From Candidatus Omnitrophota bacterium (GTDB lineage: Bacteria > Omnitrophota > Gorgyraeia > Tantalellales > Tantalellaceae): a stretch of DNA of 64,000 bases. The number at the start of each line of letters is the position of its first letter. Position 1 is the stretch's first letter. Shown piece by piece: positions 28,278 through 38,601 of the stretch. The position numbers and the translations under genes are program-made. The notes beneath the pieces were generated by a model. It had not been told where the DNA came from, made no database searches, and saw only the letters and a list, made by a program, of their open reading frames with translations. The stretch is from the NCBI GenBank assembly GCA_043813915.1, contig JBDRKO010000026.1, positions 155-64,154 of the forward strand, in the 5' to 3' direction.

Positions 28278-28305
28278 TTGACATTTTATGACCATCACCT
28301 ATAAT
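28278..28305 (+). promoter_or_regulatory. Consensus sigma70-type promoter in front of the 28324-38601 operon
   Basis: TTGACA (28278-28283), 16-nt spacer, TATAAT (28300-28305). An SD AAGGGGG follows 5-8 nt before the ATG at 28324. Confidence 0.5.
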
Positions 28306-28323
28306 AACAAAAAAGGGGGCCAA

Positions 28324-29340
28324 ATGGTCAAACTACATAAAAGCACGTTTAAGGGAAAAGAGTTGATAGACGCCGCTGAAAGAGGTGCCGATGTGCTTAT
28401 AAATACCTGCGGGTGTGTAAAAAGAGGTGATAAAGTATTGATCATTTTCGATAGCGTTACGACGGATGTCGGAGAATGTCTGGCAAAACACGCAAAAAAG
28501 GTGACGGATAACGTTGAACTCATGATAACGCAGCGGGAATATATGCACGGGATAGAACCGCCGCATGATATTGCCCGCAGTATGCTCCAGGCGGATGTCA
28601 TATATGGGTTGAGGAGTTTTTCCCTTGTTCATACCAACGCGCGGATGAACGCTACCAAACGGGGAGCCAGGTATCTAAGCCTCCCGGATTACAGTATCGA
28701 ACAGTTAAAGAGCCCCGCTATGAACGTTGATTTTTTTAAATGGAGAGCGCTGGGGGATAGAATAAAAAATATCATGACCGGGGCGAAAGAAGTCCGGATC
28801 ACCACCCGTAAAGGTACTGACCTGACGCTGGACATTTCCGGGAGAGAAACTAACTTCTGGCCTTGCATATGTGATAAACCCGGAGATGTGGGAGCGCCTC
28901 CGGATATTGAAACGAATACTCCTCCGGTTGAAGAGAAAAGCCGCGGGACGCTTGTTGTTGACGGGAGTATCCCTTGCAGCGAGATCGGTCTGGTCAAAGA
29001 AGATATAGTGTTGGAGATCGAAGATGGTTCCATAAAAAAGATAAATTCGGCTTCTGATCAGGGCATGAAATTGGCGTCTTTGATGGAACTGGATACTCAT
29101 CCCAAAAGAGGGATATTAGCCGAATTCGGCATAGGACTGAATCCCGAGGCTGAATTGTGCGGACGTATGCTTGAAGATGAAGGGTGTCTTGGGACCGTAC
29201 ATTTCGGGTTCGGGTCCAATGCGATGATCGGCGGGAAAAATGACGTTGATTTTCATCTGGATTTTGTGATAAAAAATCCCACTGTATTGATAGATAACAT
29301 TCCGATAATGGATGAAGGTAATCTTTTGACGCATGAATAG
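28324..29340 (+). CDS. M29-family (aminopeptidase T/AmpS-like) metallopeptidase-like protein
   Basis: C-terminal TVHFGFGSN...DFHLDF resembles M29 metal-binding motifs. Start moved to the ATG at 28324 (strong SD) rather than the ORF-track 28288. Confidence 0.4.
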   Translation: MVKLHKSTFKGKELIDAAERGADVLINTCGCVKRGDKVLIIFDSVTTDVGECLAKHAKKVTDNVELMITQREYMHGIEPPHDIARSMLQADVIYGLRSFSLVHTNARMNATKRGARYLSLPDYSIEQLKSPAMNVDFFKWRALGDRIKNIMTGAKEVRITTRKGTDLTLDISGRETNFWPCICDKPGDVGAPPDIETNTPPVEEKSRGTLVVDGSIPCSEIGLVKEDIVLEIEDGSIKKINSASDQGMKLASLMELDTHPKRGILAEFGIGLNPEAELCGRMLEDEGCLGTVHFGFGSNAMIGGKNDVDFHLDFVIKNPTVLIDNIPIMDEGNLLTHE

Positions 29341-36373: not shown

Positions 36374-37302
36374 TGGATCCCGTAAAGGTCGTGATCTCTA
36401 CAAGCTCTTTCGGGCAGTATGATGATAGTCCTGTGAGGATGCTTAAAGATGCCGGTATGGATGTGGTGTTGAACCCTTATGGCAGGACGATGAAGGAAGA
36501 GGAAATAAAGAACATGATAAAGGATGCCGATTTCCTGATAGCCGGCACCGAACAGCTTTCACGCGATGTCCTGGATTCCGCGAAAAGATTGAAAGCTATC
36601 TCGCGATGCGGGACCGGTCTGGATAACGTGGATCTCGCGGCGGCGGAACAAAATAATATAAAGGTCTTTAATACGCCGGACGCTCCTACGCGCGCCGTCG
36701 CGGAACTGACGGTCGGACTTATCCTTGCGCTTATCAGGCATATCCCCGTTATGGACAGGGATATCAGGGGCGGTGTGTGGAAAAAACGGATGGGTAATCT
36801 TCTCGAAGGAAAGTGCGTGGGTATAATAGGGTTCGGCCGGATCGGCCGTAAGACCGCGGAACTTTTGTTGCCGTTCGGGGTGAAGATAGTCTACTATGAC
36901 GTAAAAGAGACGGAAAGTTCTCCGGATCATGAAAAGGTCGGATTAGACCGGTTGCTTGAAAACGCGGATATAATAAGCATGCATCTTTCCGTAGTCCCGG
37001 GCGGGGAACCTGTTATAGGGAAAGAAGAGCTTAAAAAGATGAAAGAAGGTTCTCTTTTCGTGAACGCTTCCCGCGGAGGGTCTGTAGATGAGAAGGCCCT
37101 CGCCGAAGCGATAGAAACAGGACATATCGCCGGCGCCGCGCTTGATGTTTTTAAGAACGAACCCTATGACGGCCCGCTTGTTAATATGAAAGAGGTGATC
37201 CTGACCCCGCATATCGGGTCTTATGCTGTTGAAGCCAGGATATCAATGGAAACAGAAGCGGTACAAAATTTACTAAAGGGAATAAAAGGAAGAGAAAAGT
37301 GA
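36370..37302 (+). CDS. D-isomer-specific 2-hydroxyacid dehydrogenase (PGDH/GDH-like), NAD-binding
   Basis: GIIGFGRIGRKTAELL (GxGxxG), catalytic R/E/H pattern, 310 aa. Start at the MMDPVK ATG overlapping the upstream stop; the ORF-track start 36238 is rejected. Confidence 0.7.
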   Translation: MMDPVKVVISTSSFGQYDDSPVRMLKDAGMDVVLNPYGRTMKEEEIKNMIKDADFLIAGTEQLSRDVLDSAKRLKAISRCGTGLDNVDLAAAEQNNIKVFNTPDAPTRAVAELTVGLILALIRHIPVMDRDIRGGVWKKRMGNLLEGKCVGIIGFGRIGRKTAELLLPFGVKIVYYDVKETESSPDHEKVGLDRLLENADIISMHLSVVPGGEPVIGKEELKKMKEGSLFVNASRGGSVDEKALAEAIETGHIAGAALDVFKNEPYDGPLVNMKEVILTPHIGSYAVEARISMETEAVQNLLKGIKGREK

Positions 37303-37982
37303 GATATAAATATCTTTCGTATGAGATAAAAGAGAGCATTCCCGTATACGGAAAGCGCGCCATGGTCAACATGAACCCTGTCAGGTCCATAAAAGACGGA
37401 GATACGGCTAATGTGTATGAATTCACGATGCAGAATCATTGGGGAACGCATGTAGACGCGCCGCGGCATTTCTTCGATAAAGGAAAAGGGATATGTGATT
37501 TCCCGCCGGATCATTGGATCTTTGATAATCCCCAGATCGTCGAAGTTCGATTATCACCCGGAGAGATCCTGACCAATAACGGGTGGAAGGACGATATCGA
37601 TCCGGGAACCGATATCCTGCTTTTCAGGTCCGGATGGAATAATTTCAGGAATGAAGAAAAATATTTCAATAATAATCCGGGGATAGATCCCTCGGTCGGG
37701 ACATTTATCCGTGAAAAATTTACTAACATAAAAGCTGTAGGCATAGACTGGATCTCCGTGTCAGCGTATCGGAAACGCGACCTCGGAAGAGAAGCACATA
37801 GGAAGTTTTTAAACCCGGAAGGGATAAACGACCCGGTCCTTCTGGTGGAAGACATGGACCTGTCCGCGCCCGGCATCTTGAACGGCCTTATCGTCGTACC
37901 GATGAGAATGGATGTTTTTGACAGCGCTCCATGCACGGTAATAGGGAGATTTGATGATCAAGACAATAATTTTCGATTTTGA
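37299..37982 (+). CDS. Cyclase-family metal-dependent hydrolase (kynurenine formamidase/KynB-like; amidase/deformylase candidate)
   Basis: HWGTHVDAPRH matches the HxGTHxDxPxH cyclase-family motif. Confidence 0.55.
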   Translation: MRYKYLSYEIKESIPVYGKRAMVNMNPVRSIKDGDTANVYEFTMQNHWGTHVDAPRHFFDKGKGICDFPPDHWIFDNPQIVEVRLSPGEILTNNGWKDDIDPGTDILLFRSGWNNFRNEEKYFNNNPGIDPSVGTFIREKFTNIKAVGIDWISVSAYRKRDLGREAHRKFLNPEGINDPVLLVEDMDLSAPGILNGLIVVPMRMDVFDSAPCTVIGRFDDQDNNFRF

Positions 37983-38601
37983 CGGAGTATTGGTAGAATC
38001 TCTGGATATAAAGACCGCGGCTTTTGGGAAGTTATTCGAAGATAAAGGGAAAGATGTCCGGAATGAGGTGGTTAAATATCATCTGGATAATTCAGGGGTG
38101 TCACGGTTCGAGAAAATAAAGTACATATACCGTGAGATATTGAAAGAAGCCTTAGATGAAAAGACGTTCGTTCTTTTGTGTGACAGGTTCTCCAGTCTTG
38201 TCGTAGAAGAAGTGATAAAAGCGCCGTATGTGGCGGGAGCTTTGGAACTTCTTGAAGGATACAGGCGGAAGTACTCCTTTTATATATGCTCGGGAACTCC
38301 TCTAGGGGAACTGGAGAAGATCATAAAGAAGCGGAAGATAGACGGATATTTCGAGGAAGTTTACGGTTCTCCCATGAGAAAAGAGGATATAGTGAGAAAC
38401 ATATTAAAAGAGAACAGATTGCGCTCCGATGAGACGGTCTATGTAGGGGATGCTATGAGCGATTACAAGGCCGCTGAAAGTAACGCGGTCCGTTTTATAG
38501 GACGCAATACGGCGGATAAAGAGGGATTATTCTCCGATATAGATTGTATCAAGATAGACGATCTTGAAGGATTGCCGCGGATGTTGGAGCAATTGGGATG
38601 A
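37951..38601 (+). CDS. HAD-superfamily hydrolase, subfamily IA (phosphatase)
   Basis: IIFDFDGVLVES (motif I DxDGxL), the later VGDAMSDYKAA (motif IV) and an inserted cap domain. Confidence 0.7.
   Translation: MMIKTIIFDFDGVLVESLDIKTAAFGKLFEDKGKDVRNEVVKYHLDNSGVSRFEKIKYIYREILKEALDEKTFVLLCDRFSSLVVEEVIKAPYVAGALELLEGYRRKYSFYICSGTPLGELEKIIKKRKIDGYFEEVYGSPMRKEDIVRNILKENRLRSDETVYVGDAMSDYKAAESNAVRFIGRNTADKEGLFSDIDCIKIDDLEGLPRMLEQLG

Follow-up and report, generated by a model that had tools for sequence, protein, structure and literature searches.

Two described loci come closest to the gene cluster reported here. In Campylobacter jejuni, Cj1295 is genetically required for the 5-N-(2,3-di-O-methylglyceroyl)-pseudaminic acid of flagellin and was proposed to remove the N5 acetyl group (Hitchen et al. 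2010; PMC3068675). CA_C2195 of Clostridium acetobutylicum (PDB 3K9T) has a single zinc site and no canonical M28 catalytic residues; its neighbourhood, which is statistically non-random, comprises a nonulosonic-acid synthase, a cytidine monophosphate (CMP)-transferase, aminosugar N-acetyltransferases, an acyl carrier protein (ACP) and a HAD protein, and transacylation or deacylation of an amino sugar was suggested as its function (Das et al. 2014; PMC4000134). The biochemistry of Cj1295 is still undefined in the 2026 literature, one 2026 paper labelling Cj1296-Cj1310 as having no role in the glycosylation of flagella, and the enzymes that install N-acyl groups beyond acetyl and acetimidoyl are essentially unknown (PMC5378307). 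Here we analyse an eleven-gene operon (g1 to g11) on contig JBDRKO010000026.1, from the metagenome-assembled genome of a Candidatus Omnitrophota bacterium, in a stretch of 64 kb that we refer to as the window. Judging from its gene content and surroundings, the operon is probably a cassette for N-acyl tailoring that depends on a carrier protein and serves a nonulosonic acid of pseudaminic/legionaminic type, or its amino-sugar precursor, made just downstream, a reading that we hold at a probability of about 0.62. Its core association is not new, the combination of DUF4910, N-acyltransferase and ACP in nonulosonic-acid loci having been noted in 2014.

The window has a G+C content of ~45%, and coding is almost wholly on the + strand. 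An initial annotation of the sequence had described a TTGACA-16-TATAAT promoter followed by a string of eleven genes with overlaps of 4-32 nt. Direct reading places the -35 element TTGACA at 28278-28283 and the -10 element TATAAT at 28300-28305, separated by a 16-nt spacer; this is the sole 12/12 consensus match within 27.8-39.3 kb, and no promoter inside the operon scores above 10/12. Behind it, as described, all eleven + strand open reading frames (ORFs) are present, tightly packed and spanning 28324-38601. The overlaps stand for eight of the ten junctions (4, 4, 4, 4, 8, 11, 11 and 32 nt), the other two being gaps of 13 and 20 nt. The operon and the pathway that follows it are laid out as follows (aa, amino acids; SAM, S-adenosylmethionine).

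28278..28305, + strand: sigma-70-type promoter, TTGACA / 16-nt spacer / TATAAT (direct reading)
28324..29340, + strand: g1, putative metalloenzyme of M29/NicX fold, 338 aa, partner of the ANL ligase (Pfam, AF2, PDB)
29333..30901, + strand: g2, ANL adenylating ligase, 522 aa, presumed carrier loader (AMP-binding 225 bits, plus AMP-binding_C)
30898..31677, + strand: g3, probable two-module VOC-fold protein of an unnamed family, 259 aa (Foldseek)
31674..32363, + strand: g4, class I SAM-dependent methyltransferase, 229 aa (Methyltransf_11/25/31)
32377..32634, + strand: g5, free-standing carrier protein, 85 aa, phosphopantetheine site Ser40 (WIDSF) (PP-binding)
32624..34231, + strand: g6, radical SAM enzyme, probably B12-binding, 535 aa, presumed C-methyltransferase (Radical_SAM 92.7 bits)
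34221..35030, + strand: g7, AAC(3)-fold N-acyltransferase, 269 aa, alternative start ATG 34236 (Antibiotic_NAT)
35051..36373, + strand: g8, DUF4910 + DUF2172 + HTH_47 protein with an M28-like mono-zinc fold, 440 aa (Pfam 361, 141 and 97 bits)
36370..37302, + strand: g9, short D-2-hydroxyacid dehydrogenase of phosphoglycerate dehydrogenase (PGDH) type, 310 aa (2-Hacid_dh_C 183 bits)
37299..37982, + strand: g10, cyclase-family (PF04199) metal-dependent hydrolase, 227 aa (Cyclase 72 bits)
37951..38601, + strand: g11, HAD-IA phosphatase, 216 aa from TTG 37951 or 215 aa from ATG 37954 (HAD_2 62 bits)
39037..51573, + strand: downstream nonulosonic-acid pathway, probable source of the acceptor sugar (Pfam)

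The start of g1 is ATG 28324, preceded by the ribosome-binding site AAAGGGGG; the mechanically listed ATG 28288 falls within the promoter spacer and was rejected. A start of g9 at 36238 was likewise discarded, gene calls on identical contigs giving 36370, where the start forms an ATGA overlap with the g8 stop. 3' of g11 lie a GC hairpin at 38692-38709 and, at 38721, another TTGACA; both are consistent with an operon end after that gene. The stretch after g11 (38602-39036) also contains an ORF for a 79-aa HTH_17 protein at 38755-38994, which is called on an identical contig as well. Identical contigs exist in three sources, and among the homologous loci compared the exact eleven-gene set was not found beyond these contigs of the same organism.

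All eleven domain assignments of the initial annotation were reproduced with Pfam and NCBIfam profiles, those for M29, VOC and the B12-binding domain at sub-threshold scores. No NCBIfam equivalog cut-off was reached by any of the eleven proteins, and none is therefore a named enzyme. The ACP-like ORF, g5, does match the PP-binding family (PF00550; 28 bits, cut-off 20.8); its best NCBIfam matches are DltC models, below cut-off, and among 43 distinct homologues Ser40 is kept in 100% and Asp39 in 98%. The transferase g7 matches Antibiotic_NAT (PF02522) at 92.1 bits (cut-off 25) over 229 of 232 profile positions. Against the AAC(3) resistance equivalogs it falls far lower, the best model, AAC_3, giving 75.8 bits for a cut-off of 270 and the others less, and it matches AAC(3) enzymes in the PDB at E~1e-8 only. 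His168 and Glu171 are invariant in 26 members of its clade, and at position 165 the window protein has Ser, where no less than 90% of the clade have Thr; these residues align with Thr186, His189 and Glu192 of AAC(3)-VIa (6NTI/6BBR, ...LHYAE...), which are catalytic in that enzyme (PMC5884680). Because these Ser/Thr-His-Glu residues are kept, g7 is not a pseudoenzyme. By its profile scores it should not be filed as an aminoglycoside-resistance enzyme.

The partners of this pair in the proposed scheme are the loader g2 and the DUF4910 protein g8. The ligase lies below every NCBIfam equivalog cut-off; among solved structures it comes nearest to oxalate- and malonyl-CoA ligases, and a substrate that is short and polar is suggested by this. 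The match of g8 to 3K9T (E 1e-168) preserves the zinc ligands His, Asp and His, the alignment keeping TCHPSMCNDN (His, Ser, Asp), PETIG (Pro) and YH(S/T)SADN (His); as in 3K9T, Ser and Pro stand at the positions of the M28 catalytic Asp and Glu. The protein is a homologue of Cj1295 and CA_C2195, with the three-domain architecture of PIRSF015244 ('polysaccharide biosynthesis protein with aminopeptidase-like domain').

DUF4910 served as the first anchor in the search for related loci and gave 80 of them in species-representative genomes (L004-L083), almost none of which carried other operon genes; since it proved a poor cassette anchor it was dropped, and the search was re-anchored on the AAC(3)-like clade. 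The closest DUF4910 homologues (41-59% identity) come from Verrucomicrobiota, Actinomycetota, Planctomycetota and others. With the AAC(3)-like clade as anchor, about 50 metagenomic loci from many phyla revealed a recurring cassette with conserved order and overlapping genes. Members were counted in two data sets, by tblastn in 40 loci with enough flank and by ORF clustering in 54 loci, and counts are given in that order. The AAC(3)-like anchor (40/40; 49/54) is accompanied by a carrier (40/40; 48/54), which in nearly all cases lies directly upstream (~0.3 kb) of it, and by an ANL ligase (40/40; 47/54). DUF4910 (33/40; 38/54), the g3-type VOC-like protein (32/40; 43/54), a methyltransferase (31/40; 39/54), an HMGL-like, that is aldolase-like, protein (31/40; 34/54) and a cyclase-family protein (24/40; 40/54) follow. 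Less regular are an ACPS-type phosphopantetheinyl transferase (PPTase; 19/40; 22/54), NeuB (17/40, within 10 kb; 20/54) and a g1-like protein (5/40; 12/54). Neither the 2-hydroxyacid dehydrogenase of g9 type nor the HAD protein of g11 type was found in any related cassette by tblastn (0/40 each) or seen in the 54-locus clustering. SDR dehydratases (29/54) and DegT aminotransferases (17/54) are common neighbours.

Identity to the window proteins is high for the methyltransferase (57-66%), the carrier (49-62%), the AAC(3)-like protein (~56%) and DUF4910 (up to 62%), and lowest for the ligase (~30%) and the cyclase (~25%). Independent anchors reach the same cassette, homologues of g3 leading to L171 and L172 and homologues of g1 to L168 and L170. 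The HMGL-like gene passes curated cut-offs for 4-hydroxy-2-oxovalerate aldolase. Several cassette genes are fused: L168 encodes DUF4910::PPTase (ACPS) and AAC3::aspartate-type aminotransferase proteins (3620-5290 and 11955-13946), L121 an ANL::aminotransferase (6086-8842), and L171, beside its cassette, a CTP_transf_3::2-Hacid_dh protein (16087-16783). We considered whether the aminotransferases next to or fused to ANL genes might be alpha-oxoamine synthases, acting by decarboxylative Claisen condensation on acyl-ACP; this was rejected, the NCBIfam models identifying them as aspartate-type aminotransferases.

The cassettes often lie in NeuB/CMP-transferase/DegT/PseB-like clusters; several have PseB/C/H-like genes on one side and NeuB/CMP-transferase on the other. 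Within the window, the distance from g2, g5, g7 and g8 to NeuB, downstream of them, is ~10 kb, and the same set of loader, ACP, AAC(3)-like protein and DUF4910 beside NeuB/CMP-transferase recurs in L085, L118, L168, L171 and L075. The last of these, from a Campylobacteraceae metagenome-assembled genome (MAG), has a HAD-domain loader, ACP, AAC(3)-like protein and DUF4910 in a row, which indicates that the shared core consists of loader, carrier, AAC(3)-like transferase and DUF4910, and that the loader is exchangeable. In a Euryarchaeota MAG (L169, 6845-10816), PPTase, RraA-like, NicX-like, ANL and carrier genes occur together, with no AAC(3)-like gene within 8 kb; the loader sub-module can stand alone or serve another transferase.

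These comparisons bear on what the initial annotation had proposed. Its scheme of activating an acid, tethering it to a carrier, tailoring it and transferring it to an amine is supported by the placement of the carrier upstream of the AAC(3)-like gene with an ANL ligase nearby, by the conservation of Ser40 and of the AAC(3) residues, and by the fusions; and with about 50 loci in metagenomes, the genes do not meet by chance. Treating all eleven genes as one system went too far: as a whole they are not one conserved unit, some seven of them making up the cassette that recurs and the B12-radical SAM gene being a rare accessory. The window operon is a mosaic, with an M29/NicX-fold protein in place of the usual pyruvate aldolase and a B12-radical SAM gene inserted. 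The statement that the combination matches no characterised system overlooked the Cj1295 region (PMC3068675) and the CA_C2195/3K9T neighbourhood (PMC4000134), both closer than the butirosin and Vibrio cholerae O1 pathways that had been cited as parallels. What had been put forward as a candidate for a new system is therefore not categorically new; the cassette of which it is an elaborate, mosaic variant is widespread and has been recognised but not characterised. Our literature search found no paper on a cassette of ANL, VOC-like protein, methyltransferase, cyclase, ACP and AAC(3)-like protein, and no published biochemistry on the transfer of ACP-bound acyl groups to a sugar amine by its members.

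The Cj1295 region of C. jejuni NCTC 11168 resembles the window in having a DUF4910/DUF2172 protein of the g8 family and an N-acetyltransferase (Cj1296/7) within a nonulosonic-acid locus, and the Campylobacteraceae cassette L075 has the same core order. The Campylobacter loader is a large HAD-domain protein, which we take to be FkbH-like from the 11168 annotation, whereas that of the window is an ANL ligase; the AAC(3)-like proteins of the two share only ~25% identity, and the VOC-like, cyclase, B12-radical SAM, M29/NicX-like and 2-hydroxyacid dehydrogenase genes, all present in the window, are absent from the Campylobacter region. CA_C2195, known from its structure and context, has the same three domains and single-zinc ligands as g8, and its listed neighbourhood (nonulosonic-acid synthase, CMP-transferase, aminosugar N-acetyltransferases, ACP and a HAD-fused transferase) lacks the ANL, VOC, cyclase and radical SAM set. 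AAC(3)-VIa (6BBR) and g7 belong to the same Antibiotic_NAT family and keep Thr/Ser-x-x-His-x-x-Glu; AAC(3)-VIa recognises the pantetheine arm of its donor. The presumed donor of g7 is an acyl carrier protein and its presumed acceptor a nucleotide sugar or nonulosonic acid, whereas the AAC(3) acceptor is an aminoglycoside.

Other systems offer further parallels. In the DltA/DltC system, as proposed for the window, a surface polymer is decorated by way of a small carrier that is free-standing and is charged by a separate ligase of ANL type. Unlike the Dlt system, the window has no DltB or DltD, g5 scores under the DltC cut-offs, g2 is not DltA-like, and transfer would be cytoplasmic, onto a sugar amine, by an AAC(3)-fold enzyme. 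The butirosin pathway (BtrI/J/H/G) uses the ATP-grasp enzyme BtrJ and BtrH for loading and transfer, and the V. cholerae O1 tetronate is made by RfbK-O, with LuxC/LuxE-type enzymes. In the pathways for the 4-amino-2-hydroxybutyrate (AHBA) group of butirosin, for this tetronate and in group II of the Aeromonas flagellar glycosylation islands (FGI), the acyl group is built on a dedicated ACP and an amino sugar is then N-acylated, as proposed here, although the families of their loading and transfer enzymes differ from those of the window. The Aeromonas FGI group II set (ACP, ANL, LuxC/LuxE) lies in a pseudaminic-acid island (PMC7874193).

The tailoring genes around the carrier range from regular to rare members of the cassette. 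For g3, Pfam Glyoxalase matches remain below threshold (23.6 and 17.5 bits) and no PDB match was found by sequence. Models were compared by Foldseek or TM score for g3 and g1; a low-confidence AF2 model of g3 (pLDDT 62) matches only VOC proteins (GLOD4, 1ZSW/glyoxalase-family and HPPD-type) at a Foldseek probability of 1.0. His7, Glu67, Glu245 and Glu248 are invariant in five sequences. A word-index search for homologues returned just five proteins and an exhaustive profile search far more: the family numbers 649 cluster representatives when the limit is E<=1e-10, and 163 when it is E<=1e-30. Because no Pfam model reaches threshold, the g3 family is a candidate for a new family definition. The rare accessory, g6, carries the cluster motif CPYMCSFC from residue 272 and has a sub-threshold B12-binding domain (25.3 bits, cut-off 32.1); its best NCBIfam matches are radical SAM C- and P-methyltransferases, all under cut-off, and a true homologue (60% identity) occurs in cassettes L109 and L113 only. 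The glycan island holds four B12-binding radical SAM genes (7943-9361, 32624-34231, 55058-56446 and 58251-60329), an unusual density, which points to more than one C-methylation, or to radical chemistry of another kind, on sugars or on the groups that they carry.

Among the genes that may help to supply the acid is g1. It scores 26.5 bits against Peptidase_M29, just short of the cut-off of 27, and the precomputed Pfam annotation also lists PF26233 (NicX); in the PDB, g1 matches 7CN3 at E 4e-8. Its AF2 model (pLDDT 93.8) gives a TM score of 0.8 to NicX and 0.63 to the M29 peptidases PepS and AmpS. In spite of this fold match, the identification of g1 as a NicX 2,5-dihydroxypyridine dioxygenase was rejected. 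The NicX Fe(II) site consists of His265, Ser302, His318 and Asp320; in the profile alignment NicX 'SHIGWGL' faces 'AEFGIGL' in g1 (His to Glu) and 'FSTGPN' faces 'FGFGSN', only the HxD pair being common. Since the iron ligands are not conserved, g1 is not a NicX family member. Residues Glu196, Glu267, His293, His311 and Asp313 are invariant among its homologues and align to PepS positions; the five metal ligands of M29 are Glu, Glu, His, His and Asp. The g1-like gene is always directly 5' of the ligase (as in L118, L168, L169 and L170), often after an RraA-like gene (CHA/HMG-aldolase family), and in the related loci it never shares a cassette with the HMGL-like gene. The identity of g2 to the ANL ligases is 31-47% in loci of g1 type, versus 27-31% in those of aldolase type.

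The last three genes of the operon are less typical. The dehydrogenase g9 belongs to the D-2-hydroxyacid dehydrogenase family (PF02826, 183 bits); its best NCBIfam match is the PGDH equivalog TIGR01327, at 232 bits far from the cut-off of 454, and its best PDB match is phosphoglycerate dehydrogenase of Pyrococcus horikoshii (1WWK, E 8e-63). The hydrolase g10 matches kynurenine formamidase at E 1e-7. Its identity to the cassette cyclases is just 23-28%, and it is 36% identical to a cyclase that is paired with a HAD gene in L005, a gene to which g11 in turn is 34% identical. The phosphatase g11 scores above cut-off for HAD-SF-IA-v1 and far below it for the phosphoglycolate phosphatase model. In L005 (1896-11281) the order is HpcH/HpaI aldolase, CTP_transf_3, SDR, cyclase, HAD, CTP_transf_3, NTP-transferase, SDR, RmlC-like, C-methyltransferase, DUF4910. 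Such an order belongs to another sugar pathway, which has the cyclase and HAD pair in common with g10 and g11.

The operon is embedded in glycan genes on both sides. Downstream, the nonulosonic-acid pathway comprises a CBS-SDR dehydratase, a cupin, a DegT aminotransferase, an AKR, an SDR, a CMP-transferase, a GNAT, an epimerase, a methyltransferase, an ATP-grasp protein, a HAD protein, the NeuB synthase and a putative transferase of 618 aa, and beyond it lie a flippase and more radical SAM enzymes and methyltransferases. Genes of the kinds found in this pathway also adjoin related cassettes. Upstream are GT-C-type membrane glycosyltransferases, GT2, GNAT and a fused SDR::DegT; the block at 17216-28220, with three PMT_2/PMT-type GT-C membrane proteins, a YfhO-like protein, GT2, GNAT and the fused SDR::DegT, may be a module for lipid-linked or protein O-glycosylation. 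A second CTP_transf_3 gene overlaps an SDR gene at 56631-58254, between two B12-radical SAM genes, a hint that the island may make one more sugar or acid that is activated with CMP.

Sequence and synteny together suggest the following route, all of whose steps are drawn from them. A small hydrophilic acid would be supplied, at best guess a D-2-hydroxy acid from g9, with possible help from g11, g10 and g1. The ligase g2 would adenylate it and load it as a thioester on the Ser40-phosphopantetheine of g5. On the carrier, g4 may add an O- or N-methyl group, g6 may methylate an unactivated carbon, and g3 may isomerise or epimerise next to the thioester. Once finished, the acyl group would leave the carrier's pantetheine arm for the sugar amine, a transfer made by g7 with its Ser/Thr-His-Glu site. 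The N5 of pseudaminic and legionaminic acids is already acetylated on arrival from UDP- or GDP-N-acetylglucosamine (UDP-/GDP-GlcNAc), and exchanging this acetyl group therefore needs an amidase. Taking off this inherited N-acetyl group, and so freeing the amine, would most plausibly be the task of the mono-zinc protein g8. The route predicts a sialic-acid-like sugar that bears an unusual methylated hydroxyacyl amide, possibly 2-methoxy and C-methyl-branched; the sugar would be CMP-activated and placed on a surface glycan.

As to the acyl group itself, the aldolase and aspartate-type aminotransferase of related cassettes suggest groups derived from 4-hydroxy-2-oxo acids, possibly amino acyls. 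Because in the window the PGDH-like g9 takes the place of the relatives' aldolase or aminotransferase, a D-2-hydroxyacyl group is suggested here. The conserved methyltransferase could turn it into a 2-methoxyacyl group; this identification of the acyl group is a guess, and a tentative one. Two exotic acyl groups known on nonulosonic acids, di-O-methylglyceroyl and the 2-methoxy-4,5,6-trihydroxyhexanoyl group of Treponema denticola, are both 2-O-methylated 2-hydroxyacyls, and only chemical reasoning connects the latter with aldolase-type cassettes.

Several observations weigh against reading the operon as an N-acyl tailoring cassette for nonulosonic acids. Whether acyl-ACP or acyl-CoA is the donor, what the acceptor is and in which order the steps follow are deductions; to our knowledge, AAC(3) enzymes act only with acetyl-CoA; DUF4910 lacks the canonical M28 catalytic Asp and Glu; and no ACPS-like PPTase ORF was found within the 64-kb window. 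The role of DUF4910 may also exceed deacetylation in the cassette, since few of its relatives adjoin AAC(3)-like or ACP genes (10/54 and 4/54, respectively, of the DUF4910-anchored reference-genome loci). Nor need the acceptor be a nonulosonic acid everywhere, given that NeuB lies within 10 kb in 17 of 40 loci. It is possible, if doubtful, that the acyl cassette ends at g8 and that g9-g11 form a co-transcribed but separate module acting on a phosphorylated or ulosonic-acid sugar intermediate. The absence of g9 and g11 types from all 40 cassettes, the similarity of g10 and g11 to the L005 pair, which lies between CTP_transf_3 genes and near an HpcH aldolase gene, and the CTP_transf_3::2-Hacid_dh fusion beside the L171 cassette are the reasons for thinking that these genes may serve a sugar pathway. 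On the other hand, the g8/g9, g9/g10 and g10/g11 junctions overlap by 4, 4 and 32 nt with no internal promoter above 10/12, a 2-oxo-acid reductase fills the slot held by aminotransferases in relatives, and proteins of the cyclase family regularly belong to the cassette (40/54).

The cargo could instead be an amino acid, loaded in DltA/DltC-like fashion, perhaps serine-derived or non-proteinogenic, N-methylated by g4 and converted to an aminoacyl amide by g7. N-methyl-glutamyl and alanyl substituents are known on some legionaminic acids, g5 has DltC models as its best matches (below cut-off), the fold of g1 is that of an aminopeptidase and its ligand set is M29-like, and PGDH and a HAD phosphatase represent two of the three steps of the serine pathway. 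Because many relatives carry aspartate-type aminotransferases, which adjoin or are fused to ANL or AAC(3)-like genes in 16 of 54 related loci, the acyl group may well be amino-acyl rather than hydroxy-acyl, at least elsewhere. For the window we consider this unlikely: the operon has no aminotransferase, a 2-hydroxyacid dehydrogenase standing in the position that it holds in relatives, and g2 resembles CoA ligases of short-chain acids, not DltA or the adenylation domains of non-ribosomal peptide synthetases. That the acceptor is another amino sugar of the island, such as a 4-amino-4,6-dideoxyhexose from the fused SDR::DegT (18851-21031), fits the irregular presence of NeuB beside the commoner SDR dehydratases (29/54) and DegT (17/54), the many loci for other sugars in which DUF4910 relatives occur, and the several amino-sugar routes encoded in the window. 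It is nonetheless quite improbable here, where the operon directly adjoins the nonulosonic-acid pathway with no strong terminator between; several cassettes, moreover, sit inside pseudaminic-acid-like operons, and the sole genetic datum, that for Cj1295, concerns pseudaminic acid. Finally, the exact eleven-gene set is confined to identical contigs of one organism, as a chance juxtaposition, or a free-standing secondary-metabolite pathway unrelated to glycans, might predict; we strongly disfavour both, given that a seven-gene core recurs across phyla, in about 50 loci, its order conserved and its genes overlapping, and given the position of the operon among nucleotide-sugar, flippase and glycosyltransferase genes.

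If the operon is indeed a carrier-dependent N-acyl tailoring cassette, it may, speculatively, carry further implications. The AAC(3) clade of g7 would be the first of its fold with a carrier-protein donor, and with DUF4910 it would form a 'deacetylate and re-acylate' editing pair on nonulosonic acids; interchangeable loaders (ANL with pyruvate aldolase, ANL with an M29/NicX-fold protein, or FkbH-like) could lie behind much of the N-acyl diversity of bacteria and archaea; and g6 would C-methylate a carrier-bound hydroxy acid to give a branched methoxy-hydroxyacyl group new to sugars.

How flagella assemble, how phages recognise their hosts and how immunity is evaded are all influenced by the N-acyl groups of pseudaminic and legionaminic acids, among them glyceroyl, di-O-methylglyceroyl, hydroxybutyryl, N-methylglutamyl and 2-methoxy-trihydroxyhexanoyl; Cj1295/DUF4910 has awaited an assigned role since 2010. 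Metagenomic 'AAC(3) family N-acetyltransferases' of the g7 clade ought not to be annotated as aminoglycoside resistance. The cassette can now be defined as compact and modular: a ligase, a carrier, DUF4910 and an AAC(3)-like transferase form its core, to which genes for VOC-like proteins, methyltransferases, cyclases, aldolases, aminotransferases and radical SAM enzymes may be added, and this sharp definition makes both the origin of N-acyl diversity in nonulosonic acids and the function of DUF4910/Cj1295 directly testable.

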